Source of the DNA: a virus
Taxonomy: Duplodnaviria > Heunggongvirae > Uroviricota > Caudoviricetes
Strand: one strand, 5' to 3'
IMG/VR virus record: IMGVR_UViG_2778261644_000010
Length of the DNA stretch: 37,198 bases
Shown here: positions 2,795-23,309 of the stretch, in pieces
How positions within the stretch are numbered: position 1 is the first letter of the stretch
Layout of the letters: each line of letters begins with the position of its first letter
Program-made: the position numbers and the translations under genes
The notes under the pieces: generated by a model
Seen by the model: the letters and a program-made list of their open reading frames with translations, nothing else
The model's database searches: none
What the model was told of the DNA's origin: nothing

Positions 2795-5387
2795 TTGCAT
2801 ATTCCTTAGCCCAGCGGGGCAGTGATAATGTCTTAATAGCTGGCCATTCATCGGTATTCAGGCAGTCAGACAGGGTTCGCAGATTGCGGTGATATTCCTG
2901 TTGACCTGCCAGTTTTGCTTCTTCGCCCATCATGAAAATTTCAACCGGATAACGTCCGCATTCAATAGTTGTGCTGGCAACCAGAAAAACGAAAGTTGGC
3001 TGCACTCCAAACTGTGCTTCATAACCGTCACTGTAGAATGCATCCTGAACGTGATAGCGGTAGTCGTAATAAGCGGTTTTGAATCGTTGAATATCCGCCG
3101 TAGTTTTCACGTCCATGATCCAGTGAAATTCAGGGATAATTTTGTCCGGACGGCACCGACACAAAATTCCTGTTTCAGGATCTTCCCAGTAAATTGATGA
3201 TTCAGCGTGTCCGGCGCTTTCAACAAGCCATTGCCCCAGCGGCAAAGCCATAACGCTTTGATACATGAGTTCAATTTTCCGGCCTTCTTCCGCAGTGATA
3301 ACCGTTTTTCCTGTGCTTGCGCATTCCATCAGAAACGCTTTCTCTTCTTCTTTTCCGGCGTTTGTACGGCGGTTAAATTCAGGTGCTACGATAAAGCGGT
3401 TACTGAATTCCTCCGGTTCAAGTACCCGGCAGTGGAAAGCGGTTCCTAAATCGAGCGTTTTTGTCTTTGTGGTGTCCACGGGGGCATTTTTACGCCACAA
3501 ATATAGTGCCGGAGTATCAGCAATGTCATCGAGCTGAGACTTACTGACACCGGGACCCGCGTGGTAATTCTCATTCGAAATTCCGTAATAAATACCTGGC
3601 TCTATGTCTTCTACGATTACGGGATCTGCGACTTCTCCAGTTTCATCACTGCAATCGCGATGCGGATCGCTGCCAGCATTCTCATTGTGCGGATGTTCAG
3701 CGCCTTCCATTTCCTCCGGATCATTTTCCTTAGCTTCAACCTGACTCTCTTCATCGAATGTTTCCTGGTATGTTGCGTCGCCCATCACCGCACCACAGTC
3801 AGGGCAGTTATCCCCGCCAGTCTGGCCGCAGGCATTGCAGGCTATTTCCGGTTCCTGTTGCACTACTGGCTCAGGTTGATTCATATCCGGGCTGGTTTTT
3901 TCCGTTTCTGGCTGGTTCTGGTACACAGAATCGCGAGTCTGGATCCCCTTTACCCATTTCGGATCGTTCGGGTCGCTAATTCCGTCAACAAATTCACCAC
4001 GTGATGCAGCAAGCAATTTATCGGCATCGACAGGATTTTTTGATGGAATGTTTTTCCGGGCTTCATGGAGTTCTGCCCGCAGTTCCTGATATTTCGCATC
4101 AACAGAATTTACCTGTGACTGAGCATCCAGCGGCTGCGTGTCCTGATGATGTTCAGTTGCGTCCGGTTCCATTGTTTCAGCCTCTCCCTGTTCAACTGCC
4201 GTTGTTCCAGATGGTTGCGGTTTTTCTTCGTCATCCTGTTTTCCTTCTTCTGTTACTCGCTGCGGCATCGGGGCAGAGGAGCGACCGCAGGCAATATCCA
4301 CGATTTCCGGATCAGGGTTTGCATGATCGGTTTCAGTCAGTACTTTGTTCAGATATTCAGTGACGTGCGCGGGGATGACCTCGATCCCAATTGGTGCTTC
4401 TTTTACGGACGCAACCACGATGGCGCGGGAATAATCCAGCCCGCCAGGCATGGTGATGAATTTGTCGCGGAAAACAGAAAAGGGCGGTTTATTTTCAGCG
4501 ATAATTTCCTCAATGCGTTTAGCGTGTGCCGGATGAAGGTTATAGATGTCCAGATCCATTGAACGGGCCAGTACGCCAGTGGCTACGTCGCGCGCCAGTG
4601 ACGTCAGATCGTGTACGAAACCTTCGCCGCGATCGGTGAGGTTTCCGCCGCCAGCATTAGCACCGGAAGCCGTGCGAGTGATGTGTGAAACACGATTACC
4701 CTTCATCCACTCTTTTGTCAGCAGTCCTCGATCGGTGTAGTCAGCGTTCAGGTATGCTTCGAAAAAAGCAGTTATCAGTCCCAGGTTTGAATTACCAGGA
4801 TTAGGGAAAACTTTGTCAGTGTCACGAACCAGTTTGTGGAGATCGCGAATTTCCAGCGGGTCGAGCAGGCTGGTTTTGTGGGAAACAGCCAGGGCAGTAA
4901 CAGCCGGTAGTTCTTCAGCCCGAGCAATGTGTAATGCCTGGAGTCCGTCGCGTGAAACATGCGTTACCGGTTTTTCGCTGCCGTGTTGAGCAAGCCAGCG
5001 AATGGGCAGTTCCTGGCCAGAAATTGGGAGTAGCATATTCTCCTCAATCTCAGTCATGTCTTCGCCGTTGACGTTGGTATTGCCTTGATAGTGAGCGTTG
5101 TCTGGTGCTGCTCCCGGTTTTAGTTCCCATGTCATGGAGTCTTTGCTGAGTTGATAGCGTTCACTCCAGGTAAAATCGATCTCACCTTCAGCGGGCAGGT
5201 CATTAACGACAGGAAAATTCGTGGCAACAGCTTTAAAATAGCTGCTCAGTTTTTTACCTGACTTAACGATCAGGTAGTCCAGAGTGGCACAGGTCGATTC
5301 AAAATCGTCGCTTGCCCACAGGACGACGTCAGGTTCACCGGATGATTTTTTCGCTTTCCGTAACAGGAAGAGTGGTTTTGTGCTCAT
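2787..5387 (-). CDS. recE: Exodeoxyribonuclease VIII (RecE)
   Basis: 866-aa ORF with an acidic, Pro/Glu-rich central linker and a C-terminal nuclease domain. Length and position upstream of recT match RecE. Confidence 0.9.
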
Positions 5388-5488
5388 TGTTTTTTAACCT
5401 CAACTCAGATTAAAATTCGTTTTGTTCAGTGAATGATCTTGCCGGATACACACTTTTCATAGCCTGCGCCATACGCAGGCTATTTCTT

Positions 5489-5764
5489 TCAGATTTCACC
5501 TTTTAATTTCATTGCAATTAGAGTTGCCAGAAATTCGGCTTTTTTTTCTGCGGGCAGATTCTTTCCGGTATGCACCAGGCACATTTTTTTGACACCTTCG
5601 TGAAGTGTTTTAACGTTGCCTGATGGACCGTCGATATCAACCACAGTGAATGGGGTTTCTTTATTTTCTGTTTTAATTACGTAGCCAATGCGCTTTCCTT
5701 CCAGATTCACCTCGTGAACAATGTCATCGGTAGTTACAACAGTGGCTTCATAATTGGTAATCAT
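5489..5764 (-). CDS. racC: Rac prophage protein RacC
   Basis: 91-aa product from the internal Met (MITNYEATVVTTDD), in the expected position upstream of recE. Confidence 0.7.
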   Translation of the reverse strand: MITNYEATVVTTDDIVHEVNLEGKRIGYVIKTENKETPFTVVDIDGPSGNVKTLHEGVKKMCLVHTGKNLPAEKKAEFLATLIAMKLKGEI

Positions 5765-8928: not shown

Positions 8929-9786
8929 ATGCTGTTTGTGCTTATTCTAAGCCACCGGGCAGCATCATACGGGGCAATTATGGCCGCATTACCATACATG
9001 CAACTGTACATAGCTGATTACCTGGCTGACACCATGCATTTGTCAGCAGAGGAGCACGGTGCGTATTTGTTGCTGATGTTCAATTACTGGCAAACAGGAA
9101 AGCCAATACCCAAAAACAGGCTGGCAAAAATTGCCCGTCTGACTAACGAGCGATGGGCTGATGTTGAACCATCCTTGCGGGAGTTTTTTTACGATAACGG
9201 CGAGGAATGGGTGCATCTTCGGATTGAGGAAGATCTGGCATCAGTCAGGGAAAAATTAACCAAAAAATCAGCCGCAGGAAAAGCATCTGTTCAGGCCAGA
9301 AGAAGCAGAAAGGAAGCAGATGTTCAAACAAAACAAGAGAGAAATTTAACAGGTGTTCAAACAGATGTTGAAGTGGTGTTTGAACATGATGTCAACACAA
9401 AGGCAACTAATAAAGATACAGATAAAGATCTAAAAACAGATCCCCCCCTAAATCCCCCCCGGGGGAATCGAGGTGTTAAAAAGTTTGACCCTCTGGATAT
9501 TGCTTTGCCGAACTGGATTTCTGTCTCGCTTTGGCGTGAGTGGGTTGAATTTCGCCAGGCATTGCGTAAACCGATTCGAACGGAGCAGGGCGCTAACGGG
9601 GCGATACGGGAGCTGGAAAAATTCCGCCAGCAGGGTTTTTCACCTGAGCAGGTGATTCGATACAGCATCGCCAATGAATACCAGGGCTTGTTCGCGCCAA
9701 AAGGTGTTCGACCTGAGACGTTACTCCGACAGGTTAACACCGTCTCGTTACCGGATAGTGCGATCCCGCCAGGCTTCAGGGGGTAA
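8929..9786 (+). CDS. ydaU: Replication initiation-associated protein YdaU (DUF1376-like)
   Basis: 285-aa ORF immediately upstream of the DnaC-like gene. Length and position match Rac ydaU. Contains a Pro-rich linker encoded by two C7 tracts. Confidence 0.7.
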   Translation: MLFVLILSHRAASYGAIMAALPYMQLYIADYLADTMHLSAEEHGAYLLLMFNYWQTGKPIPKNRLAKIARLTNERWADVEPSLREFFYDNGEEWVHLRIEEDLASVREKLTKKSAAGKASVQARRSRKEADVQTKQERNLTGVQTDVEVVFEHDVNTKATNKDTDKDLKTDPPLNPPRGNRGVKKFDPLDIALPNWISVSLWREWVEFRQALRKPIRTEQGANGAIRELEKFRQQGFSPEQVIRYSIANEYQGLFAPKGVRPETLLRQVNTVSLPDSAIPPGFRG

Positions 9787-9792
9787 CTGACC

Positions 9793-10539
9793 ATGAAAAA
9801 TATTGCGGCAGGCGGCATTCTTGAACGTATCCGCAGACTGGCCCCGCCACATGTAACCGCCCCATTCAAAACGGTAGCGGAGTGGCGCGAGTGGCAACTT
9901 TCCGAAGGCCAGAAACGTTGTGAGGAGATCAACCGTCAGAATCGTCAGTTGCGGGTGGAAAAAATTCTGAACCGCTCTGGCATCCAGCCATTGCACCGCA
10001 AATGCTCGTTTGCGAATTACCAGGTGCAGAACGACGGTCAGCGATACGCGTTGAACCAGGCGAAATCTATCGCTGATGAACTGATGACCGGGTGTACAAG
10101 TTTTGCGTTCAGCGGAAAACCTGGTACCGGAAAAAACCATCTGGCGGCGGCTATCGGGAATCGCCTGCTGAAAGATGGCCAGACAGTGATTGTGGTTACC
10201 GTGGCTGATGTCATGAGTGCTCTACACGCCAGCTATGACGACGGGCAATCAGGCGAAAAATTTTTGCGGGAACTGTGCCAAGTGGATCTGCTGGTTCTTG
10301 ATGAAATTGGCATTCAGCGCGAGACAAAAAACGAGCAGGTGGTGCTGCACCAGATTGTTGATCGCCGGACAGCGTCGATGCGCAGCGTGGGGATGCTGAC
10401 AAACCTGAACTATGAGGCCATGAAAACATTGCTCGGCGAGAGGATTATGGATCGCATGACCATGAACGGCGGGCGATGGGTGAATTTTAACTGGGAGAGC
10501 TGGCGTCCGAATGTCGTCCAGCCAGGAATTGCGAAGTGA
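9793..10539 (+). CDS. ydaV: DnaC-like replication helicase loader (YdaV)
   Basis: 248-aa ORF with Walker [16 protein letters not shown] and Walker B-like [10 protein letters not shown]. Typical IstB/DnaC-type AAA+ protein. Confidence 0.85.
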
Positions 10540-10561
10540 TTTTTACCGGGAGGAAATTTTA

Positions 10562-11323
10562 ATGGAAACCGTTTTTGATGCACTGAAAGCAATGGGAAAA
10601 GCCACGTCGGTAGAACTGGCTGCGCGACTTGATATCAGTCGTGAAGAAGTGCTGAACGAGCTGTGGGAACTGAAAAAGGCTGGATTCGTTGATAAAAGCG
10701 TATACACCTGGCGTGTGGCCGATAACAACGTTCAGCAGGAACATCCAGTGCCGGAAGAACAGCCGGAAGAAATCGCCACGGCAACAGTAGCGAAAATCTC
10801 AGAGTGCGATTTAACCGCGACGATTGAACAACGCGGACCACAAACGGCGGATGAACTGGCTACGCTGTTCGGTACCACATCCCGCAAAGTTGCTTCAACG
10901 CTGGCAATGGCAATCAGCAAAGGACGCCTGATTCGCGTAAATCAAAACGGTAAATTTCGTTACTGCATGCCGGGCGGTAATTTACCAGCAGAGCCGAAAG
11001 CTGCATCGGTAGCGGAAACTGATGGTAAAGCCTTTCCTCAGCCTGCATGTGTTGTTTTACCAGTACAGGAGGCTGCAATACAGGAAGAAATTAAAACAGA
11101 AACTGTGGCGGACATTGTGCAGCCGCTGCCATCGTTCACTGAAACGCGAGCAGATGACCTGGTTTTACCATCGCTGCATATGGCAAACCGCGAACTGCGT
11201 CGGGCGAAAAGTCATGTCCAGAAGTGGGAGCGAGTCTGCGCCGCGCTGCGTGAGCTGAACAAACACCAGGATATTGTCCGTCAGATTGTCGATTCCTCCA
11301 GTCGTATTGTGTCGGAAAAGTGA
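10562..11323 (+). CDS. YdaW-like phage protein with tandem winged-helix-like segments
   Basis: Start at the ATG after GGGAGG ([13 protein letters not shown]). Two similar helix-rich segments ([28 protein letters not shown] and [30 protein letters not shown]). Occupies the position where K-12 Rac carries the truncated ydaW. Confidence 0.55.
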
Positions 11324-11339
11324 TTCTAGGGGAGGGCTT

Positions 11340-11759
11340 ATGGCAAAAGTATTAACACAGGAAGAGCGAGAAAAAATTAAAGGGCAGATTGTTGATCTCG
11401 TACGCCAGAGTGAGCGAGAGACGTTACGACAACTGGAAGCTAAAACAGGGGCAACCAGATATCTGATAAGTATTCTCGCCAAAGAGCTGGTTTCGAGTGG
11501 TGACGTATACAACTCTGGCTACGGGTTATTCCCGTCTGAGCAGGCACGTAAAGACTGGCAAAACGCCAGCAAAAAACTCTCGAGTGCAAAGTCGAAGGAA
11601 CCGGTTATGGTTGATCCTGACCTTATCTGCTCGTTATCTGACGGAGAAATACGTCGTTACGACAGGCGTCATAATATAATTTGTAGTGAGTGCCGTAAAA
11701 GAGAAGTTATGAAGCGTATATTGTCGTTTTATCAGGGAGATGTTCGGTATTTATTGTAG
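11340..11759 (+). CDS. Hypothetical phage protein
   Basis: 139-aa ORF from the ATG after GGGGAGG (MAKVLTQEEREK), with a C-terminal CxxC (ICSECRK). Last gene before the AT-rich island. Confidence 0.5.
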   Translation: MAKVLTQEEREKIKGQIVDLVRQSERETLRQLEAKTGATRYLISILAKELVSSGDVYNSGYGLFPSEQARKDWQNASKKLSSAKSKEPVMVDPDLICSLSDGEIRRYDRRHNIICSECRKREVMKRILSFYQGDVRYLL

Positions 11760-11933
11760 TGACGAGATTAAAGACCATTAATTCATATGTGAATTGACAT
11801 TTTCATGGCACAGGGTAGAGCTAGCATGGTTGTCAGTTTTGTGCCGACAACGGTCATTGCTTTCCTGATAGAAATGGCGATGATAACATGCTGTTAATTA
11901 CATCGCCAATACAAAAAAGTAATATAACTAAAA

Positions 11934-13961
11934 TCAAAGACTCATGTTAATAGTCATAACCTCCGAATCGTAATCTACTGATTTGATTACTGGGAAGCTA
12001 TGTTCCTGCTCCATGGGCGCAAGCAGAGCACCTGGTTTAAATACAAGATATTTTTTAGAGATTTTATAAGACTCACTGTTTATATGCGGAAATTTTATTT
12101 CATTATACTCGTAACGCTTAGTGTTGGCATGCAGTTGTGGTGGGTTTGCTATATATTTTTTAAAGTTGCCTTTTAATTCATCAATATTGTTATATAGCCT
12201 GTGCCAGGCAATAGGGTTAAATCCATTTTGTGAAATTACGGTTAGCAAATTTATCTCGTTTGAGGCAAAGTAGGCTAGAAGTATTTTCTCATCAATCACT
12301 GGTATTGAATTAAAGGAATATCCAACAAATATCTGGCTGCTGTTAATTATAAATCCAGCAAAATTATAATTCTTATTTTTGTCATAACTCCAACCTAACC
12401 TTTCAAAAATAACCTCTATATTATTTTTTATAAATTCTGTTTTCCTTACGACCTGTTCTCCTGCATGCTGAAGTATTTCAGATGTCCGGTACTTAGATAT
12501 TTCTGAATCAGTCGTAACTATAGACTTTGCTTCACCAATCAAAATCATATCATCTATCCTTGATAATAAATCAATTTCTTCCTCAATGGAGTTTATCTTG
12601 ATTCTTTTAGATACCGCTTTGTCATAGTCAGTTATAAAAGTATTGGTTCCGAGAACACGGTTTATTTTATCTACAACTTTTTTTTCGTAAGTCGTTCCTT
12701 TTCCAGCGAGATTAATATTAAAATGACATGCCCAACGCTCAATAAGCCTAAACATCACCGGCGCATTTAATGCACTAGTCAATAATGCATACTTATTTTT
12801 CTTTAATTTTATCAAAGGTTGACACCAGATATCTCCAGTTGGAGAGGAGTTGAATGTCAAAAAATCAAGAATCTTAGTAACTTTAACCACGCTCATTTCT
12901 GTTGCTTCGCACAAGGCGCGTTCTAATGAACTTGTTTGAACGGTTGGGCAAAACTCCCTTAATTTATTAACATTAAATACACTATCATCTTCTGGATATT
13001 TTTCAGTCTCAATATTTGCGATGAGCATCAATACTCTCATTACATTCAATACTTCTAACAAGCAAAAACCTTTACCAAAATCGTAACGTAACCATTCTTT
13101 GGGAAAATAGTCTTCAAGATGTTTTTCTTCCACTCTCCATTGTGCATTTATTGTTATTAATTCTTTCTTTGCATTTCTAATAGATGCAACCTTTGCCACT
13201 CTTTTTTTATTCTCACGAGTAATAAAAATATATTTATCGCTATCAAAATACTGAGCTATATCAGGTTGGGATGCGATGAGTGTCCGTTGGACAGAAAGTC
13301 TTTCTTTTCGTTGACTGCTGTTATTAAATGCAATTTCAAACGGTGTGTTTGGTTGCTCTATTTTGAATGTTTTATGTTCAGACTCAACTTCGATTAAATT
13401 ATAATCACTCCATAAAACGCATTGCCAAAGATGGATGTAAGTATTATATAACTGAGATAACCAACTTTCTTGTTGGATGAAAGACAATTCATCGATTGGA
13501 TTAGTGGAAATTATTATTTGACTATTTTTTTCTATACCTCTTAGGCATTCTCTTATGGCAAACTGGAAGCCATCGACAGCTCCATGAACGATCTCTCCTA
13601 AGCTTTGTTTATTCCCTAGTTTATTTGCTTCAAGCAATATGCCATTAACATTTGTAGTTGTTGTCTTTTTTGCAAGTTTAAGAGCAACGGCTGATGTTCT
13701 ATTGGAGCTTGCAATATAAGAGATCATTAGTTTTTCATAGTTTGTTTTAGGTGCCCGTCTATACAAATCTGCTAACGCCTCTCTAATATCCTTCAGCACA
13801 CTATAGATGATTATACCCATTGTATAGACTTTTTTATCTCTCGCAGAAGAATTTAATTCAACCTTAGTCCACCCCTCATTCCATTTCTCAAGATTAAAAT
13901 CAGCACGTGTTGGTGACTTGATTTTACCCTTAATAATTTTGCTAATAAATTGATCACTCAT
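11934..13961 (-). CDS. Large orphan protein of unknown function (675 aa), candidate defence gene
   Basis: Long uninterrupted ORF in a visibly AT-rich block, on the strand opposite the flanking phage operons. AAGGA RBS and a perfect TATAAT (minus strand; plus coords 14055-14060) upstream. No P-loop or RT motif seen. The C-terminal third has a possible PD-(D/E)xK-like arrangement (EEIDLLSRIDDMILIGEAKS). Confidence 0.75.
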   Translation of the reverse strand: MSDQFISKIIKGKIKSPTRADFNLEKWNEGWTKVELNSSARDKKVYTMGIIIYSVLKDIREALADLYRRAPKTNYEKLMISYIASSNRTSAVALKLAKKTTTTNVNGILLEANKLGNKQSLGEIVHGAVDGFQFAIRECLRGIEKNSQIIISTNPIDELSFIQQESWLSQLYNTYIHLWQCVLWSDYNLIEVESEHKTFKIEQPNTPFEIAFNNSSQRKERLSVQRTLIASQPDIAQYFDSDKYIFITRENKKRVAKVASIRNAKKELITINAQWRVEEKHLEDYFPKEWLRYDFGKGFCLLEVLNVMRVLMLIANIETEKYPEDDSVFNVNKLREFCPTVQTSSLERALCEATEMSVVKVTKILDFLTFNSSPTGDIWCQPLIKLKKNKYALLTSALNAPVMFRLIERWACHFNINLAGKGTTYEKKVVDKINRVLGTNTFITDYDKAVSKRIKINSIEEEIDLLSRIDDMILIGEAKSIVTTDSEISKYRTSEILQHAGEQVVRKTEFIKNNIEVIFERLGWSYDKNKNYNFAGFIINSSQIFVGYSFNSIPVIDEKILLAYFASNEINLLTVISQNGFNPIAWHRLYNNIDELKGNFKKYIANPPQLHANTKRYEYNEIKFPHINSESYKISKKYLVFKPGALLAPMEQEHSFPVIKSVDYDSEVMTINMSL

Positions 13962-14117
13962 AACAATTAATTTCCTTGATTAATTAAATCCATATATGCA
14001 AGCCAGTACATCTGGTTCATTCTTTATTCGTCCTAATGCTTGTCTTAAGGGGAATATTATAACGTTGTAGATGAAGAAACTACTAGCGTAATCTATTAAA
14101 TTTAGACCGCAACTTCG

Positions 14118-14189
14118 AACTTCCGCTCCTCACACACAGCGGACCTTGTGACCTTGATTTCTGCACGCTCCTTGCTACGAGCGGAAGTT
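14118..14189. other. GC-rich inverted-repeat element (11-bp stem, about 50-nt loop)
   Basis: AACTTCCGCTC (14118-14128) is the perfect reverse complement of GAGCGGAAGTT (14179-14189). Lies in a locally GC-rich block inside the AT-rich divergent intergenic region. Confidence 0.35.
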
Positions 14190-14416
14190 GGTGCAGCGAC
14201 TTGTCTTAGCCAGAGGAGGCAGGGTCAACAACACGACATTGCTAGTTAGATATGTATCTAATAATGAGGGACAGGTCACATTTACCTATAATCCAAAACA
14301 TTATTATGGCTAGGGAAATGTGTACCATACAAAAGATTCATCTACTGCATAGCCTAATTACTACAAACAAATTGTTCGTCTTTGCTTCGAACATTATGCC
14401 CAAAAGGAGAACCTAG

Positions 14417-14764
14417 ATGGTTCCAATCCAAGAAGTTGATTTCCACACAGATAAAAAAGTTATCTATAAGCTACATATTATTTCTCCAACAGGGGCTGCC
14501 CCCTTTTTTACAGAGGTGTTTGTTTACGACTCTGAATTTAATCCACCTTTTGCATCAATGGTTACTTTTCAGCAGCAGTTTCAGGATTCCAAAGCTGCGT
14601 TTACTCATGTGCTTTATTGGGTGGAAAACTACAGTAAAAAGCAAGGTTATACTGTCAACCGAATCAACAACCCATGTAACTGTGAATTCCTATCACAAGC
14701 GGACCAACAACAATCAGTCCAAAGTGCAGGGCTCAATATTCAAGTTAAAGTAAATGAGGTATAA
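14417..14764 (+). CDS. Hypothetical 115-aa protein, first gene of a two-gene cargo operon
   Basis: ATG preceded by AAGGAGAACC. AT-rich. The overlapping alternative-frame ORF 14382-14753 lacks an RBS. Followed 97 nt downstream by the 282-aa gene on the same strand. Confidence 0.55.
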   Translation: MVPIQEVDFHTDKKVIYKLHIISPTGAAPFFTEVFVYDSEFNPPFASMVTFQQQFQDSKAAFTHVLYWVENYSKKQGYTVNRINNPCNCEFLSQADQQQSVQSAGLNIQVKVNEV

Positions 14765-14860
14765 AAATGCCAATCACGGCGACAGTTTGTCCGTTACAGC
14801 TTCGCCTCCACTATAAACCTGCACGTCTTAGCGACGTTAGGTGAGTCAGAGTAAATATCT

Positions 14861-15709
14861 ATGTTCAGCGAATTAGTAAAGGAATTTCATAAAAAAGGAA
14901 TTCCTACAGATAAACCAGATTTTTATGATCATCCAAACTTTATTAAGGAAGAGCAACGAGATCCAAGCTACTTGATTAAGTTTGCAAAATTTGTTGCAGA
15001 AAAGCCATACTCTAATGATTATATAGAAAAGGCAGAGAGTATAATTTTTGATGTGGCAAAGATATTAAGCAAGCAGCTTTTAGATAATGGTCGTCAAGGT
15101 GCTTGTGTGGATATATCAGGAATTCTTGCTCGCATACTGGAACTTAAAGGTATTTGGTGTGCTTGCATTAAAGGCTCTTGCACAATTGATTTCCCCCAAA
15201 AGTCTAATGAAAAAACAACATACTTCTGGTCATCAGATCACGGTGAATTTACTGCTGGACATGCTTGGGTATTTGCTCCACCATTCTCTATAGTGGATAT
15301 CAGCTTGAAGCAACAATTATACACAGGTACTAAAAAAAATTATATCCCTGAAATTATCATGGTAAAAGATGCTGTCAAAACAACATCAACTATAGAGGAC
15401 ATTATCAGCCCTGAAATCAGGATGCTAATGAACGCTCAAGGAATTTCAAAGCATCTTATGCTTAAATATGGCGCATCCGAAATGAATATCATCCAAGAAA
15501 TATTCCCTGCCCAATTGATAGAATTTAATGAAACAAAATTCAAGTTTTCGCCTGTTGCTGTTCATGCGTTTACAGAGTCATTGTCGGGTATGAAAAATAT
15601 GAAGTTTAATGGACTATATCCTTACGATATGTACAGGAAAACCATAAAAGATAAAGTGCCAAATATTGTCTCACTATTAAATCCGGGTGACGCCTACGAT
15701 GCAACCTGA
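14861..15709 (+). CDS. Putative transglutaminase-like / papain-fold cysteine protease or deamidase (282 aa)
   Basis: Motifs in the order and spacing of the transglutaminase-like core: Cys in GACVDISGILARILELKGIW (C82), His in GHAWVF (H134) and Asp in SIVDIS (D146). AT-rich. Confidence 0.6.
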   Translation: MFSELVKEFHKKGIPTDKPDFYDHPNFIKEEQRDPSYLIKFAKFVAEKPYSNDYIEKAESIIFDVAKILSKQLLDNGRQGACVDISGILARILELKGIWCACIKGSCTIDFPQKSNEKTTYFWSSDHGEFTAGHAWVFAPPFSIVDISLKQQLYTGTKKNYIPEIIMVKDAVKTTSTIEDIISPEIRMLMNAQGISKHLMLKYGASEMNIIQEIFPAQLIEFNETKFKFSPVAVHAFTESLSGMKNMKFNGLYPYDMYRKTIKDKVPNIVSLLNPGDAYDAT

Positions 15710-17442: not shown

Positions 17443-17732
17443 TGGTGAATTTACGTAAAGCGGCTAAAGGCCAGATGTGCCAGATCAGAATCCCTGGCTA
17501 CTGCAATCACAATCCCGAAACCTCTGTGCTGGCGCATTACAGGCTGGCGGGGAAGTGCGGAACAGCGACAAAACCACACGATATGCAGGCGGCGATAGCC
17601 TGTAGCTCATGCCACGATCTAATCGACGGGCGGGTAAAAACCAGCGATTACACCAAAGAAGAATTGCGCCTGATGCATGCTGAAGGGGTTTTTCGCACAC
17701 AAGAAATCTGGAGAAAGAAAGGTCATTTATGA
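17442..17732 (+). CDS. YbcO-like (DUF1364) putative nuclease, Cys4 zinc-binding
   Basis: 96-aa product with CxxRIPGxC...CSSCHD cysteines, resembling the lambdoid nin-region protein YbcO as I recall it. Confidence 0.65.
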   Translation: MVNLRKAAKGQMCQIRIPGYCNHNPETSVLAHYRLAGKCGTATKPHDMQAAIACSSCHDLIDGRVKTSDYTKEELRLMHAEGVFRTQEIWRKKGHL

Positions 17733-18271
17733 TTTACCCAACGAATACAGGAAAAAGCGGAGAACACCTTCGCCTCACCACGCTGGAAAGTGTCTGGATT
17801 CAGGGAAAACTACGTATGTGGGGGCGCTGGTCGTATATTGGCGGTGGCAGGTCAGGGAATATGTTCAATCAGTTGTTGGCATCCAAAAAACTGACGAAAA
17901 CAGCCATTAATGAAGCCCTGCGCAGAATGAAAAAAGCGGGAATAGAGAAAGCTGAGCTGGAAGCGTTTTTGCGAGAGATGATCAACGGCAAGCAAAAGAG
18001 CTGGCTGGCGCATTGTACTGATGCAGAGGCGTTATGTATTGATCGAGTCATAAGTGAGGTGCTGGCAGAGCATCCAGGATTGATTTGCATTCTCCGGCAA
18101 CGCTATGAAGGGCGGGGGATGACTAAGCGCAAAATGGCTGAATTGCTAAATGATGCACACCCAGAGTGGTGTTTTAGCACATGCGAAAAACGGATTGCTA
18201 ATTGGTTAGCTGTTGCTGAGTATGCCCTATATATTCCCATGCGTGAATCATTTGCTGAGAAAATGGCTTGA
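17729..18271 (+). CDS. Putative late-gene antiterminator Q
   Basis: 180-aa ORF that is the last gene before an intrinsic terminator and the lysis cassette, which is the canonical Q position. Family assigned by synteny only. Confidence 0.5.
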   Translation: MIYPTNTGKSGEHLRLTTLESVWIQGKLRMWGRWSYIGGGRSGNMFNQLLASKKLTKTAINEALRRMKKAGIEKAELEAFLREMINGKQKSWLAHCTDAEALCIDRVISEVLAEHPGLICILRQRYEGRGMTKRKMAELLNDAHPEWCFSTCEKRIANWLAVAEYALYIPMRESFAEKMA

Positions 18272-18351
18272 TTTCTTACGTATAAACTGCTTCAATTTTG
18301 CTATGCTTCGCAAAGCTGTATCGCGAGGCGGATTGCAGACATGGACATCGT

Positions 18352-18378
18352 AAAAAAACCGCTTAATGCGGTTTTTTT
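18352..18378 (+). terminator. Intrinsic terminator downstream of Q (tR-prime-like)
   Basis: A-run, then stem ACCGC (18358-18362), loop TTAAT, stem GCGGT (18368-18372), then a run of seven T. The flanking A and T runs suggest it could act in both directions. Confidence 0.6.
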
Positions 18379-19314
18379 ACGTCAGGAAAGCAGGGGAGAA
18401 TGCTGCTAGTTGGGCAACTGGTCTTTCTGCTCCAAATTATAACAGAGACCAGTTATAGTTTCGGTGCTGTGTTTTTTTACAATATTGTGATAACACATTG
18501 CTGGCGGGAGTTTTGATATTTCTTGGCAGGGGCTGATGATGCGTTATCCTGATGTCGTCAACTCATATAAAATGAGATGAGAGATCATTGCAGGGTGGTT
18601 TGTAATTCGCTGTTTAGCGGGACAATATGTTGTCTGATACAAGACACCCGACGCCTCAGATTACTATAATAAAGACGAAGCATCCTTTGTATTGACCAAC
18701 CGCCTGTTTAGGCGGTTCTTTTTGGGCTGGTTTATTGTATGCCAAATGATTATTAAAAAGGTTGTGTTAATAACAAAATCCGAAATAATATGCCTGCATA
18801 TTTTTATCTTGCTTATATTCTGCATATTGTGCATAGCAGGCTCATCCCTGCAATCAAAACTGTATGATGAGTATTTTTTGTTTTCCTTTTTTCCAGTCAT
18901 CTGATGATGACCTGCTTCTTTTTAATCCGGATCGACATCAGTTTTTTAAGATAATTCCTGCGAGTTATATGCATAAATGTCACAAACTCCGCATTTTATG
19001 TGGTTGGGAGTTGCCGGGCGCGCAGTGAGTTTGCTAAGAAAACTCCTGCATGGTAAATCCCCCTGTGCGGTGGGGTGATACCATTAACCTTTTCTGTCGC
19101 CGACAGGTATCACGAACATTTTGTTCACCGGGAGGCACCCGGCACCATGCACTTCAATAGATTCTCTCCACATTATGGATATTCTTTCAGAATATCCCAC
19201 GCAGACTTTGTGTAAATGTTAACAAATGTGCGTTTTATTTGATCTGATTCGCTGTTTGAGCGTCCAAAACAACGGTATATATAATCCTTTACTATATGAC
19301 ATATGTGAGGAAAA

Positions 19315-19743
19315 ATGGGTTTTCGTAGCGCATCAATTCTTACGTTGATTATTAGTGGGATTATTATCGGGTGCACTGATGCTGTATCGACAAATTATCA
19401 TGACCGTACATCATATTACTCCGATAAAGCAATAGAGACACAGTATGTGAGTTCATCTGAACGTACTTCTGATGTTAGTGAGGATATCCGTCTGTATGCC
19501 CATCAAATCAAGAGCGCCATCGAAAAACAGTTCGGGGATGCGAGTAAGTATTCAGGAAAAGAGTGTACACTGAGAATGCATATGGCCCCGAATGGCCTTC
19601 TACTGGAGGTTAAAAGAGAAAGTGGAGACCTCGATTTATGTCGTGAAGCGATGAATGCGATAAAGAATGCTGATATACCTGCCCCCCCTTCGCCGGAAGT
19701 ATATAAAGTATTTCAAAATGGGGTGCTGGATTTTAAACCCTGA
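19315..19743 (+). CDS. Lipoprotein with TolA C-terminal (domain III)-like region
   Basis: Signal peptide with lipobox IIGC. C-terminal 85 aa (YAHQIKSAIEKQFGDASKYSGKECTLRMHMAPNGLLLEVK...IPAPPSPEVYKVFQNGVLDFKP) closely resembles the recalled C-terminus of E. coli TolA, which ends ...PKPPSQAVYEVFKNAPLDFKP. TATATAAT promoter-like element and GAGGAAAAATG RBS upstream. Confidence 0.7.
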   Translation: MGFRSASILTLIISGIIIGCTDAVSTNYHDRTSYYSDKAIETQYVSSSERTSDVSEDIRLYAHQIKSAIEKQFGDASKYSGKECTLRMHMAPNGLLLEVKRESGDLDLCREAMNAIKNADIPAPPSPEVYKVFQNGVLDFKP

Positions 19744-19893
19744 TATTTATTGTTTTGTAATAAACGGTTTCGGCTTAGGTTTGTTCTGACACAGCTACGG
19801 CACTGAGCTAAATTTAGCGGATAGTCAGCTCTGAGCCAGTGGCGGACGTAACAACTACTATTGCTGAGATTTTAATGGATTGAGGAGCAAGAA

Positions 19894-20289
19894 GTGGGAT
19901 TAAAGAAAATCGTTATGTTGACTTTTTGGGTCGGTTTTGTTGCGGGATGCACACCTTTACACCCTTCAGATTGCCACAAAACTACTGCTACAGGTAGTTG
20001 CAGTTCAGGACGCTGGGATGATCAGGATGAATGGGGGGCGCAAGCGCGGGGAATCAGAGCTGCAATTAATGCCAAACTTGATGAGCCGCATAACTGGAAA
20101 GGGAAAAAATGCAGGTTGCATATGGAATTCTCTCAGGATGGCACGGCGTTAAAAATATCTACCAGTAACGGTGATAAAGCCTATTGCGAAGCGATAAAGT
20201 CCGCAGCTCATAAAGCCAAATTTCCGGCCTTCAACAATCCGGAAGTCTACAGAGATTTTCAGAAATCTGGCTTTGACATGCGAGGTTAG
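19894..20289 (+). CDS. Second lipoprotein, divergent paralog of the TolA-domain-III-like lipoprotein
   Basis: GTG start after GAGGAG; lipobox VAGC. Shares the K-x-C-x-L-x-M ... G ... C-x-A-I-K-x-A ... P-x-x-x-x-P-E-V-Y-x-x-F-Q pattern with the upstream lipoprotein. Confidence 0.65.
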   Translation: MGLKKIVMLTFWVGFVAGCTPLHPSDCHKTTATGSCSSGRWDDQDEWGAQARGIRAAINAKLDEPHNWKGKKCRLHMEFSQDGTALKISTSNGDKAYCEAIKSAAHKAKFPAFNNPEVYRDFQKSGFDMRG

Positions 20290-20540
20290 CTCTTCAATTA
20301 CTATATCTCATTCATAGCAAACTGACAGATTTGATGATGTTCTATATACGAAACCTGTGATGTCAAGTCTGAGCTAATACAAATAAACATAATATCAGAG
20401 AAATACATTTTATTAGCTCGCTACGGCGAGCTTTTTATATTGCATCGTCTCCAGCATATATATCAATTAAGGCTCTGATTGATGTGTCTGAAAGCCTACA
20501 CATAATAACTATGCCATCCGTTCCGTGCGGAGGTGAGGCT

Positions 20541-20756
20541 ATGAAATCCATGGACAAAATTTCAACAGGCATTGCCTACGGCACCTCCGCAGGCAGTGCT
20601 GGCTACTGGTTTTTACAGTTGCTCGATAGAGTAACTCCGTCACAGTGGGCTGCAATCGGTGTGCTGGGTAGTCTGGTATTTGGCCTGCTGACGTACCTGA
20701 CAAACCTTTATTTCAAGATTAAAGAAGATAAGCGCAAGGCTGCGAGAGGTGAATAA
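20541..20756 (+). CDS. Class II holin / pinholin (phage 21 S-like)
   Basis: 71-aa product [71 protein letters not shown], recognised as the S21 pinholin type. Two transmembrane segments and a charged C-terminus. Confidence 0.85.
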
Positions 20757-21253
20757 TGCCTCCATCATTACGAAAAGTCGTTGCTGCTGCTATTGGTGGC
20801 GGAGCAATTGCTATAGCATCAGTGTTAATCACTGGCCCAAGTGGTAACGATGGTCTGGAAGGTGTCAGCTACATACCATACAAAGATATTGTTGGTGTAT
20901 GGACTGTATGTCACGGGCATACAGGAAAAGACATCATGCTCGGTAAAACGTATACCAAAGCAGAATGCAAAACACTCTTGAATAAAGACCTTGCCACTGT
21001 CGCCAGACAAATTAACCCGTACATCAAAGTCGATATACCGGAAACAACGCGCGGCGCTCTTTACTCATTCGTTTACAACGTGGGTGCTGGCAATTTCAGA
21101 ACATCGACGCTTCTTCGCAAAATAAACCAGGGCGATATCAAAGGCGCATGTGATCAGCTACGTCGCTGGACATATGCTGGCGGTAAGCAATGGAAAGGTC
21201 TCATGACTCGTCGTGAGATTGAGCGTGAAATCTGTTTGTGGGGTCAGCAATGA
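20756..21253 (+). CDS. SAR endolysin (lysozyme with N-terminal signal-arrest-release segment)
   Basis: 165-aa ORF with a Gly/Ala-rich hydrophobic N-terminus ([20 protein letters not shown]) followed by a lysozyme-like domain. Start overlaps the holin stop, as in phage 21 S-R. Confidence 0.85.
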
Positions 21254-21714
21254 ACAGAGTAACCGCGATTATCTCCGCTCTGGTTATCTGCATCATCGTC
21301 TGCCTGTCATGGGCTGTTAATCATTACCGTGATAACGTCATTACCTACAAAGCCCAGCGCGACAAAAATGCCAGAGAACTGAAGCTGGCGAACGCGGCAA
21401 TTACTGACATGCAGATGCGTCAGCGTGATGTTGCTGCGCTCGATGCAAAATACACGAAGGAGTTAGCTGATGCGAAAGCTGAAAATGATGCTCTGCGTGA
21501 TGATGTTGCCGCTGGTCGTCGTCGGTTGCACATCAAAGCAGTCTGTCAGTCAGTGCGTGAAGCCACCACCGCCTCCGGCGTGGATAATGCAGCCTCCCCC
21601 CGACTGGCAGACACCGCTGAACGGGATTATTTCACCCTCCGGGAACGACTGGTAATGATGCAGGCCCAACTTGAAGGTGCTCAGCAATACATAACCGAGC
21701 AGTGTTTAAAGTAA
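21250..21714 (+). CDS. Spanin inner-membrane subunit Rz (i-spanin)
   Basis: N-terminal transmembrane segment ([19 protein letters not shown]) followed by a coiled-coil, charged periplasmic domain. Immediately after the endolysin. Confidence 0.8.
21470..21655 (+). CDS. Spanin outer-membrane lipoprotein Rz1 (o-spanin), embedded in Rz
   Basis: 61-aa ORF in the +1 frame inside Rz. Lipobox VVGC and a Pro-rich body ([17 protein letters not shown]). Confidence 0.7.
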
Positions 21715-21851
21715 AATCTTAACTACAATATGATTCATTTTGATGATTGTTTCATAAGGAACAGTGAAGTAAGATCTAAGAGGAGTTAAATTTTATACAG
21801 TATAATCATAATATTGCAGCAAGGTGGTTATAATTGAAAGAATATTTAGAT

Positions 21852-23309
21852 ATGAATACATCTCATGTAAGAGTTGTTACTCATATGTGTGGGTTCCTGG
21901 TTTGGCTCTATAGTCTTTCAATGTTGCCACCAATGGTTGTAGCATTGTTTTATAAAGAAAAAAGCCTGTTCGTTTTCTTTATAACTTTCGTTATATTTTT
22001 TTGCATTGGTGGCGGAGCGTGGTATACAACTAAGAAATCTGGCATTCAATTACGTACCCGTGATGGGTTTATTATAATTGTAATGTTTTGGATTTTGTTT
22101 TCTGTTATTAGTGCATTCCCTTTATGGATTGACTCAGAACTTAATTTAACGTTCATTGATGCTCTGTTTGAAGGGGTTTCTGGAATAACAACAACAGGAG
22201 CAACTGTAATTGATGATGTTAGTTCATTACCTCGGGCATATTTGTACTATCGGTCACAGTTAAATTTTATAGGTGGTTTAGGAGTTATTGTTCTGGCGGT
22301 TGCTGTATTGCCATTATTGGGTATTGGTGGTGCAAAGCTTTATCAGTCAGAAATGCCGGGGCCATTTAAGGATGACAAACTCACTCCCCGCCTGGCCGAT
22401 ACGTCACGGACACTGTGGATAACTTATTCTTTATTAGGTATTGCTTGTATTGTCTGTTATAGACTTGCAGGAATGTCTTTGTTTGATGCTATTTGTCACG
22501 GGATTTCCACAGTTTCGCTTGGTGGTTTCTCAACTCATAGCGAGAGTATCGGATATTTTAATAACTATTTGGTTGAGCTGGTGGCTGGTTCTTTTTCCCT
22601 GCTATCGGCTTTCAACTTCACTCTTTGGTATATTGTTATTAGCAGGAAAACGATAAAACCTTTAATCAGAGATATTGAACTTCGTTTCTTTCTGTTAATA
22701 GCCTTAGGGGTGATCATTGTTACCTCTTTCCAGGTCTGGCATATAGGTATGTATGACTTGCATGGAAGTTTTATTCATTCGTTTTTTCTTGCCAGCTCCA
22801 TGCTCACTGATAATGGTTTAGCTACGCAGGATTATGTAAGTTGGCCCACGCACACGATAGTGTTTTTGCTGTTGTCAAGTTTCTTTGGGGGATGTATAGG
22901 TTCAACTTGTGGTGGAATTAAGTCACTTCGATTTCTTATACTTTTCAAACAAAGCAAACACGAGATAAATCAGCTTTCTCATCCCAGAGCGTTGTTGAGT
23001 GTAAATGTAGGAGGGAAGATAGTTACAGATCGTGTAATGAGGTCTGTATGGAGTTTCTTTTTTCTTTATACTCTCTTCACGGTGTTTTTTATACTGGTGT
23101 TAAATGGTATGGGATATGATTTTCTTACATCATTTGCAACAGTGGCTGCATGTATTAATAATATGGGATTAGGTTTTGGGGCTACTGCATCGTCATTCGG
23201 AGTGCTTAATGACATTGCAAAATGTTTAATGTGCATAGCTATGATTCTTGGTCGCCTTGAAATTTATCCTGTTATTATATTGTTTTCAGGTTTTTTTTGG
23301 CGCTCCTAA
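21852..23309 (+). CDS. trkG: Potassium uptake protein TrkG (Trk system membrane subunit)
   Basis: 485-aa polytopic membrane protein starting MNTSHVRVVTHMCGFLVWLYSL, recognised as Rac TrkG. Visibly AT-rich relative to the prophage core. Confidence 0.9.
   Translation: MNTSHVRVVTHMCGFLVWLYSLSMLPPMVVALFYKEKSLFVFFITFVIFFCIGGGAWYTTKKSGIQLRTRDGFIIIVMFWILFSVISAFPLWIDSELNLTFIDALFEGVSGITTTGATVIDDVSSLPRAYLYYRSQLNFIGGLGVIVLAVAVLPLLGIGGAKLYQSEMPGPFKDDKLTPRLADTSRTLWITYSLLGIACIVCYRLAGMSLFDAICHGISTVSLGGFSTHSESIGYFNNYLVELVAGSFSLLSAFNFTLWYIVISRKTIKPLIRDIELRFFLLIALGVIIVTSFQVWHIGMYDLHGSFIHSFFLASSMLTDNGLATQDYVSWPTHTIVFLLLSSFFGGCIGSTCGGIKSLRFLILFKQSKHEINQLSHPRALLSVNVGGKIVTDRVMRSVWSFFFLYTLFTVFFILVLNGMGYDFLTSFATVAACINNMGLGFGATASSFGVLNDIAKCLMCIAMILGRLEIYPVIILFSGFFWRS

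Follow-up and report, generated by a model that had tools for sequence, protein, structure and literature searches.

Small outer-membrane lipoproteins encoded by mobile elements, such as Cor of phages phi80, N15 and HK022, Llp of phage T5 and TraT of the F plasmid, exclude later invaders of the same cell. Exclusion is also known at the envelope protein TolA, whose domain III is the entry point of filamentous phages and group A colicins: in Ff g3p-mediated exclusion, the interaction of the g3p N1 domain with TolA domain III renders cells refractory to filamentous phages and to group A colicins. In addition, Levengood-Freyermuth reportedly found in 1993 (J Bacteriol 175:222) that exported TolA domain III makes wild-type E. 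coli tolerant to colicins E1, E2, E3 and A, and that the free domain does not complement a tolA null mutant. Here we analyzed two neighbouring open reading frames, ORF1 and ORF2, at positions 19,315 to 20,289 of a 37,198-nucleotide stretch of DNA (the window) from the Caudoviricetes record IMGVR_UViG_2778261644_000010 of IMG/VR, which represents a Rac-like prophage. Both encode predicted lipoproteins with a TolA domain III, and we tentatively propose that they serve as decoys for invaders that enter through TolA. Their features, numbered on the window, are as follows.

19315-19743, plus strand: ORF1, 142 amino acids, predicted outer-membrane lipoprotein with TolA domain III.
ORF1 residues 1-20, plus strand: predicted signal peptide with lipobox IIGC; codon of the lipid-bearing Cys20 at 19372-19374.
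ORF1 residues 21-54, plus strand: putatively disordered tether, of low AlphaFold confidence.
ORF1 residues 55-142 (19477-19740), plus strand: TolA domain III, according to Pfam, phmmer and Foldseek.
19894-20289, plus strand: ORF2, 131 amino acids, GTG start, predicted outer-membrane lipoprotein with TolA domain III.
ORF2 residues 1-19, plus strand: predicted signal peptide with lipobox VAGC; codon of the lipid-bearing Cys19 at 19948-19950.
ORF2 residues 20-43 (19951-20022), plus strand: tether with two conserved cysteines.
ORF2 residues 44-131 (20023-20286), plus strand: TolA domain III, according to Pfam, phmmer and Foldseek.

Against the Pfam family TolA_C (PF06519; gathering score 25), ORF1 scored 82.6 bits (E=2.4e-23) and ORF2 54.6 bits (E=1.3e-14); the other Pfam matches were a weaker one to TonB_2 for ORF1 and one to But2, far below threshold, for ORF2. 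In phmmer searches of the PDB, residues 55-142 of ORF1 aligned without gaps to residues 334-421 of E. coli TolA (1S62, 3QDP, 2X9A and 1TOL) with an E-value of about 5e-28, and ORF2 matched TolA structures with an E-value of about 5e-9. Ungapped identity to TolA 334-421 is 52/88 (59%) for ORF1 and 27/88 (31%) for ORF2. Further structural comparison by Foldseek placed the AlphaFold model of ORF1 on 2x9a_B (TMt 0.96, root-mean-square deviation 0.6 Å) and that of ORF2 on 3qdp (TMt 0.92, 1.1 Å), the predicted fold being the alpha/beta fold of TolA domain III with a three-stranded sheet that closes with edge strand beta3. The block-mean predicted local distance difference test score (pLDDT) is about 80-95 over the domain in both models, and falls below 50 over residues 1-50 of ORF1 and 1-42 of ORF2, which comprise signal peptide and tether. 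Cysteines equivalent to C363 and C388, which form a disulfide in TolA, are present in both proteins and invariant in every aligned family member. At the level of sequence and modelled fold, these data indicate that ORF1 and ORF2 each carry a complete TolA domain III, with a homology far beyond chance. An initial annotation, made from the letters of the window, had likened the C-terminus of ORF1 to that of TolA on the basis of a remembered TolA sequence, and had named pairwise alignment and structural modelling as checks. The remembered sequence is the one found in the PDB alignments, the likeness of ORF1 is borne out, the alignment to domain III is significant for both proteins, and both models superpose on TolA domain III.

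The same annotation had read lipoprotein signal peptides at the start of both ORFs, and lipoboxes IIGC and VAGC were indeed seen at matching coordinates and sequences. The N-terminus of ORF1 is MGFRSASILTLIISGIIIGC followed by TD and that of ORF2 is MGLKKIVMLTFWVGFVAGC followed by TP; each has a basic n-region, a hydrophobic core and a lipobox of the form [LVI][ASTVI][GAS]C, as in cleavable lipoprotein signals. The reading frame of ORF1 is intact and has a Shine-Dalgarno sequence, and the GTG of ORF2 at 19894 lines up with the ATG of plasmid orthologues, lies downstream of a conserved GAGGAG and yields an n-region of normal basic character (KK). Across 29 aligned short homologues of diverse origin, the lipobox cysteine never varies. 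Residue +2 is threonine in both ORF1 and ORF2 and T, A, S or G in the listed relatives, and aspartate was never seen at +2 in members of the ORF1 and ORF2 families. Aspartate at this position is the inner-membrane retention signal in Lol sorting. Since +2 is threonine and not aspartate, the standard Lol sorting rule predicts that both products, presumably lipidated at the lipobox cysteine, are located in the outer membrane. The tether of the ORF2 family also contains two conserved cysteines (C-x8-C), followed by an acidic motif, RWDDQDEW, in a short helix preceding the domain; both the cysteine pair and the motif are kept in relatives at 42-59% identity.

In other respects the two proteins differ from TolA. 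The N-terminal transmembrane anchor of TolA is absent from ORF1 and ORF2, which have a cleavable lipoprotein signal peptide instead; its long helical domain II is absent as well, with just a low-confidence tether of 24-34 residues before the domain; and the tol-pal operon context is lacking, the genes lying in the prophage between a Q-like gene and lysis genes. Against NF007065, the model of full-length TolA, ORF1 scored 107.8 bits and ORF2 53.7 bits, below the cut-off of 213. Against TIGR02794 (cut-off 59.45), ORF1 passed with 75.6 bits on its C-terminal part alone, and ORF2 stayed below with 47.2 bits. The matches to both models are confined to the last ~80-100 model positions. The database name TolA is therefore explained by the C-terminal part of ORF1, which by itself passes TIGR02794, and many protein records name ORF1 just "cell envelope integrity protein TolA". 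Because anchor, domain II and tol-pal operon are missing and the NF007065 cut-off is not reached, this name is a misnomer for these short lipoproteins. Other automated names are "TolA C-terminal domain-containing protein", "TolA" and "colicin import membrane protein", and PHROGs lists the family as phrog_5772 with unknown function.

In RefSeq/PGAP, 19483-19743 is an incomplete tolA pseudogene labelled "missing N-terminus", and the start of ORF2 is set to an internal ATG (19915-20289), by which the basic n-region of the signal peptide is lost; both calls look wrong. The pseudogene call, together with the score of ORF1 under the full-length TolA cut-off, would suit the view that the pair is non-functional debris, with ORF1 a decaying piece of a captured tolA and ORF2 a hitch-hiking reading frame, which we regard as extremely improbable. 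ORF1 is intact, with Shine-Dalgarno sequence, signal peptide and lipobox, and its orthologues at 91%, 74% and 66% identity are 142 amino acids each and keep the lipid-bearing cysteine while their signal peptides are quite different. The ratio of non-synonymous to synonymous substitution rates (dN/dS) is 0.26-0.39 over the whole of ORF1, 0.09-0.34 in its TolA domain III and 0.4-0.8 in signal peptide and tether; among ORF2 orthologues it is 0.08-0.16. Both genes are under purifying selection. Moreover, the same architecture is repeated in the 29 diverse homologues, and the AlphaFold models are confident across the whole domain. A tolA pseudogene at ORF1 is ruled out by its dN/dS, by the intact architecture of diverged orthologues and by the conserved lipobox, and the debris reading of the pair is essentially excluded.

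The ligand-binding sites of TolA domain III are well defined. The N1 domain of g3p, colicin N and TolB each extend the sheet by a strand at beta3 (F412-K420) and also touch helix alpha2 (G334-E349) (PMC4339652, PMC7391070). Single prolines at D418 or K420 abolish binding of all three, for which backbone hydrogen bonds at these two residues are needed (PMC4339652). Colicin A binds the opposite edge of the domain, at 375-LLDIKP-380 in beta2 (PMC4339652, PMC7391070). ORF1 matches TolA at 11/16 positions in alpha2 (DI..YA.QIKSAIE) and at 7/10 in beta3 (F.N..LDFKP), including the equivalents of D418 and K420, and its colicin A site reads LLEVKR, a conservative change from LLDIKP. PDB entry 2X9A shows g3p of phage If1 bound to TolA domain III. 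Of the positions that vary within the domain in the ORF1 family, half lie in alpha2 and the following loop, which is no more than suggestive of diversification at the ligand-contact helix.

We propose that ORF1 and ORF2 are outer-membrane-tethered TolA-III decoys against Tol-dependent colicins and filamentous phages, a reading we prefer but hold tentatively. The initial annotation had already suggested a decoy conferring superinfection exclusion or colicin tolerance, or else an effect on Tol-Pal function, and a decoy role is compatible with all that we observed. Lipidation at the lipobox cysteine and subsequent Lol sorting would bring the proteins to the inner face of the outer membrane, where the flexible tether of 24-34 residues would hold a free-standing TolA domain III just below the membrane. 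The tethered domain would bind short strand-forming epitopes that otherwise dock on beta3 and alpha2 of TolA, namely those of g3p N1 of filamentous phages and of the translocation domains of Tol-dependent (group A) colicins. Lacking a membrane-spanning anchor and any connection to the TolQR motor, the decoy would leave a captured invader stuck in a dead end. As a result, the lysogen would gain colicin tolerance and/or filamentous-phage exclusion, and a plasmid host would gain the same from relatives of ORF2. ORF1 would act as a close mimic of E. coli TolA, and ORF2 as a diverged, separately acquired one with perhaps another ligand range. The proposal presumes expression in the lysogen, ligand binding and a protective phenotype. 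The in vitro affinity of TolA domain III is 1 uM for colicin N, about 12 uM for g3p N1 and about 40 uM for TolB (PMC4339652). A modest amount of decoy could thus titrate invaders and largely spare TolB, because the invaders bind TolA domain III more tightly. The colicin tolerance reportedly conferred by exported TolA domain III in the 1993 study serves as an experimental precedent.

TolB itself is the starting point of the main rival to the decoy proposal. A tethered TolA domain III might capture the TolB N-terminus, so that TolA cannot pull TolB off Pal, and the deliberately weakened outer membrane would then shed more vesicles, leak, or make lysis and virion release easier and faster once the late operon is on. 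ORF1 retains the TolB-binding strand LDFKP, and TolB shares its site with g3p and colicin N. Free TolA domain III exported to the periplasm has been used for releasing periplasmic proteins into the medium (PMC6195910), and modulation of TolB interactions has been suggested in a review as a way to regulate vesicle production (PMC7391070). The TolA-TolB interaction is weak, however, so much protein would be needed, and relatives of the pair on plasmids and chromosomes lack a lysis context and would find chronic leakiness costly. We consider such an antagonism of Tol-Pal unlikely.

The two genes belong to two families that are joined in this prophage. ORF1 and ORF2 share about 28% identity and are no closer to each other than to TolA. 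The homology block of ORF1 (18938-19744), which comprises the region of an STnc100-like RNA element and ORF1 and ends at the stop codon, is 94% identical in other E. coli prophages without ORF2 (L009 and L010). That of ORF2 (about 19860-20292), which comprises ORF2 and its ribosome-binding site, is 88% identical to plasmids of the IncI complex and 80-82% identical to Enterobacter-type chromosomes. A tandem duplication is ruled out by the 28% identity, the separate homology boundaries and the different distributions. The initial annotation had spoken of tandem phage lipoproteins with ORF2 as the more divergent paralog. ORF2 is indeed divergent, but it did not arise by local duplication, and the phage label suits ORF1, while ORF2 is no phage-specific gene, its relatives being mostly plasmid-borne and chromosomal.

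Among the matches returned, the ORF1 family occurs almost only in E. coli, and in the contexts seen it is always flanked by a Q gene (DUF1133 or lambda-type Antiterm) on one side and by the lysis genes on the other. The orthologue at 66% identity (L007) is followed by nanS-p-like, DUF1378, DUF826 and holin genes, a neighbourhood which we take to be that of stx in Stx phages. In agreement with this, the claim that the slot is where Stx phages carry stx is upheld by this orthologue in the stx position. The complete pair is present at >=99% identity in 774/5426 complete E. coli genomes, about one in seven. In the collection of isolated phages it was found in one record only, Escherichia phage mEp460_ev081 (LR597641.1, 40533-41507), which is 99% identical to 19124-20757 of the window and has different Q and endolysin/lysis modules, suggesting that this phage picked up the cassette by recombination with a resident prophage. 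Scans of IMG/VR returned near-identical copies of this prophage only.

The ORF2 family, at 79-89% identity, spans Citrobacter, Enterobacter, Serratia, Klebsiella and Raoultella (370 clusters). In Enterobacter it is a single-copy gene in ordinary chromosomal neighbourhoods; on IncI1/B/O/K/Z (IncI-complex) plasmids it directly follows the nikAB relaxase genes in the same orientation; and on pO157-type plasmids it lies upstream of toxB. On one of the latter, NZ_CP015022.1 (~92-95 kb), the ORF2-type gene (L268 6965-7396) is 88% identical and lies between the leading region (ssb, psiB, psiA, hok) and toxB; many E. coli plasmids of similar size from cattle and food probably have this gene too. In a lineage labelled Serratia marcescens (L017-L020, 8001-8408), the ORF2-type gene stands between nrdDG and a GmrSD and HEPN pair, a neighbourhood that looks like a small defence island.

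Beyond these families, short TolA-III lipoproteins are a broad class, largely on mobile elements, and their architecture has been acquired repeatedly by phages and plasmids. Querying 1.84 billion representative proteins with ORF2 yielded 130 matches, most of them 120-150 amino acids long, and nearly all of the 44 that were fetched have a signal peptide and a lipobox. The lipid-bearing cysteine and the two domain cysteines are invariant in the 29-member diverse alignment. One homologue, 36% identical to ORF1 (P0254), follows a Q82-type Q and precedes the lysozyme gene of a metagenomic lambdoid phage, another (P0220) lies in a further phage-like contig, and two (P0217 and P0294) are chromosomal orphans. 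The protein search with ORF2 also matched about 286 Klebsiella plasmid records, and the nine records sampled all carried the same 35%-identical gene. The one examined, the conjugative IncFII plasmid NZ_CP033755.1 of Klebsiella pneumoniae (L269 6217-7246), encodes a third type of 144 amino acids with lipobox ITAC, directly after the gene for a secreted (periplasmic) thioredoxin-fold protein, with which it may form a functional pair. A profile-based protein search mostly recovered the ORF1 and ORF2 families again, and a genome scan for short homologues mostly recovered true tolA (76/80 of at least 200 amino acids, most of them 350-450). The TolA-III fold had no match in the viral structure library BFVD. 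In full-text literature we found no study of natural short TolA-III lipoproteins, with most subscription journals outside the coverage and absence therefore no proof; nor are they mentioned in those passages of a 2025 evolutionary survey of TolA and TonB that matched our terms.

These contexts bear on a further explanation, in which the proteins have an accessory envelope or transfer role and not a defensive one, such as a helper in Tol-Pal function or Pal mobilisation, in conjugation or mating-pair stability, or in host interaction, as the pO157 copy by toxB might suggest. The identity of 79-89% across genera and the dN/dS of about 0.1 in the ORF2 family are as expected for a conserved cellular partner, and the positions after nikAB, upstream of toxB, beside the periplasmic thioredoxin-fold gene and in single copy on Enterobacter chromosomes are all in keeping with such a role. 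On the other hand, no neighbour is conserved across the contexts to indicate one pathway, a TolA domain III without motor connection cannot transduce force, and in the 1993 study the free domain reportedly did not complement a tolA null mutant. We rate an accessory role as quite improbable. The same distribution is also of interest for the decoy proposal. The carriers of TolA-III lipoproteins include conjugative plasmids typed as having I-type or F-type mating-pair systems, and TolA-dependent filamentous phages use I-type and F-type pili as their primary receptors, so that presence on pilus-encoding conjugative plasmids circumstantially supports a decoy. Likewise, a common pair, independent and highly diverged versions in the Q-to-lysis slot of other lambdoid phages, and copies on plasmids fit a protective cargo gene.

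The surroundings of the pair in the window contain the following features.

17729-18271, plus strand: Q-like late-gene antiterminator candidate (Pfam DUF1133, E=2.5e-107), in the Q position after DUF1367 and YbcO.
18641-18725, plus strand: candidate late promoter and short terminator, pR'/tR'-like as suggested by a scan.
19018-19204, plus strand: element resembling the small RNA STnc100 of Rfam (79.3 bits, gathering score 47, E=1.6e-15).
19256-19285, plus strand: sigma-70 promoter-like site preceding ORF1 (TTGAGC-18-TATAAT, 10/12), a consensus match only.
20415-20440, plus strand: intrinsic terminator-like hairpin (20415-20432) and T-run between ORF2 and the holin gene.
20541-20756, plus strand: holin (Pfam Phage_holin_2_1; essD/rrrD annotated in the cassette by RefSeq).
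20756-21253, plus strand: lysozyme (Pfam Phage_lysozyme).
21238-21714, plus strand: Rz (Pfam Phage_lysis).
21470-21655, plus strand: Rz1 (Pfam Rz1).

According to RefSeq annotation of an identical locus, the Rac-like prophage has the order intR, recET, kilR, sieB pseudogene, replication genes, cargo island, hokD, DUF1367, YbcO and DUF1133, followed by ORF1 and ORF2, holin, lysozyme, Rz/Rz1, trkG and then head and tail genes. The Q-like gene also gives a borderline match to Phage_antitermQ (26.1 bits, cut-off 26), and the lysis cassette (20541-21714) is P21-like with a P21-type holin. The placement of the pair in the slot between Q and the lysis genes, as first annotated, is thus seen in a Q-like gene upstream and a P21-type lysis cassette downstream, and the promoter-like TATATAAT that had been pointed out is present; the scan gave the 10/12 match at 19256-19285. 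The terminator-like element after ORF2 consists of AGCTCGC-TACG-GCGAGCT followed by TTTTTATATT, and its hairpin is retained in the minimum-free-energy fold of 20287-20545. The spacer between ORF1 and ORF2 has no significant RNA structure (z = -0.47). Further upstream, the candidate late promoter is AAGACA-18-TATAAT at 18641-18670, with a terminator-like hairpin (18698-18717) and T-run ~30 nucleotides on, and other prophages with ORF1 orthologues show 83% conservation over 18642-18937. The pair therefore looks, from its flanking signals, like a two-gene moron inside the late operon that is possibly also self-expressed from the predicted promoter: flanked by a promoter-like site and a terminator, such a unit could be expressed in the lysogen. 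The presence/absence pattern expected of a moron is seen in related prophages with ORF1 alone and in the same cargo flanked by different Q and lysis modules.

Several other elements of the region were observed. The STnc100 match lies 110 nucleotides upstream of ORF1 and accompanies ORF1 in other prophages; in the window its terminal hairpin is swapped for a different hairpin without U-run, and the element may be a leader or a small RNA of the late region. Right after the Q-like gene, within 18305-18378 (plus strand), lies a strong terminator-like hairpin, AAAAAAACCGCTTAATGCGGTTTTTTT, which aligns with the 3' hairpin of a weak match to isrK, a small RNA of Salmonella prophages (21.6 bits, gathering score 50). 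The cargo island between the replication genes and hokD (window about 9250-15500; L001 10048-16298) is of non-phage character and, in the RefSeq annotation of the identical locus, encodes a BCCT transporter, a DUF2254 protein, a LysR regulator, a gamma-glutamylcyclotransferase and a major facilitator superfamily transporter. The exclusion gene sieB (window about 5050-5540; L001 5855-6343) is annotated in the identical genome as a pseudogene with an internal stop, so the prophage has lost sieB and carries the TolA-like pair. Directly behind the spanin genes, trkG (21834-23309, plus strand; GC 0.38) encodes a TrkH-family potassium transporter as cargo, in the same position as in Rac of K-12 and here behind an intact lysis cassette.

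The slot also speaks to the antagonism of Tol-Pal described above. Every ORF1-family member found sits downstream of Q and immediately upstream of holin, endolysin and spanin genes, as would suit a protein that eases lysis. Yet the lysis cassette already contains a complete spanin (Rz/Rz1) for the outer membrane, and a terminator separates the unit from the holin gene.

A number of observations weigh against the decoy proposal. ORF2 agrees with E. coli TolA at just 4/16 positions of the contact helix and 2/10 of the edge strand and is diverged at the colicin A site as well, so that all three binding sites have changed strongly; despite this divergence from TolA, its helix and strand are highly conserved across genera, a pattern no less compatible with a conserved cellular partner than with variable invaders. 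Its relatives also occur in the ordinary chromosomal neighbourhoods of Enterobacter. The prophage makes no pilus, and any benefit against filamentous phages hinges on a co-resident plasmid. Moreover, with the presumed late promoter upstream of it, the pair may be expressed chiefly in lytic growth, at a stage when exclusion is of little use, and the -10 of its own promoter-like site is poorly conserved, being TGTAAT/TATGTA in the 91% orthologue and different in the 66% orthologue. The pair had no match in the PADLOC defence library. Finally, in the 1993 work free TolA domain III reportedly made cells leaky, with deoxycholate sensitivity and periplasmic leakage, so a decoy would be costly.

If the decoy proposal holds, a wider and slightly more speculative view is that tethered copies of TolA domain III are a widespread and hitherto unrecognised mobile-element immunity device in Enterobacteriaceae, which would stop g3p and Tol-dependent bacteriocins before they reach motor-coupled TolA; this prophage would stack two decoys of different origin and probably different specificity. 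Copies on plasmids with I-type or F-type pili would then shield the host from filamentous phages drawn by the plasmid's own pili. Should natural decoys exist, co-receptor mimicry would join the known ways in which mobile elements protect their hosts, and the colicin and phage sensitivity of natural isolates would be read differently; decoys could also have consequences for colicin-based antimicrobials and for the use of pilus-targeting phages against resistance plasmids. If Tol-Pal is disturbed instead, the genes would be natural phage- and plasmid-borne regulators of outer-membrane stability and vesicle formation. Either way, thousands of database entries are misnamed "TolA" or "tolA pseudogene", and the genes concerned are very common in E. 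coli, including plasmids of pathogenic strains, with relatives on pO157-type, IncI-complex and Klebsiella IncFII plasmids.

Compared with described systems, ORF1 and ORF2 share with domain III of E. coli TolA (1S62, 1TOL, 2X9A, 3QDP/3QDR) the same domain and both disulfide cysteines, and ORF1 keeps alpha2 and the edge strand LDFKP, to which g3p, colicin N and TolB bind in TolA. Unlike TolA, both are predicted to hang from the outer membrane by a lipoprotein signal and a short tether, uncoupled from TolQR. Engineered periplasmic TolA domain III (Levengood-Freyermuth, Click & Webster 1993; Wan & Baneyx 1998) likewise places a free domain beside normal TolA, but that construct is artificial, soluble and overproduced, whereas ORF1 and ORF2 are natural, predicted to be lipid-anchored, borne on mobile elements and diverged from host TolA. 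The pair resembles lambdoid late-region morons (stx; bor and lom in lambda) in its insertion between Q and the lysis genes, its promoter-like site, its terminator and its patchy presence. In contrast to their cargo, a toxin or a serum-resistance factor, it encodes mimics of a host envelope protein, which might be expressed independently in the lysogen. Ff g3p exclusion targets the same interaction from the other side: there a phage protein occupies host TolA, and here a TolA copy would occupy the invader's protein. The role proposed for ORF1 and ORF2 is of the same kind as that of Cor, Llp and TraT, to which they have no sequence relationship by their Pfam matches. Those lipoproteins bind and inactivate an outer-membrane receptor (FhuA, OmpA), whereas ORF1 and ORF2 would mimic a periplasmic co-receptor and soak up the invader. 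On this proposal ORF1 and ORF2 are mobile-element envelope lipoproteins of the exclusion or lysogenic-conversion type with an unusual mode of action, in which a periplasmic co-receptor would be imitated instead of a surface receptor being masked.

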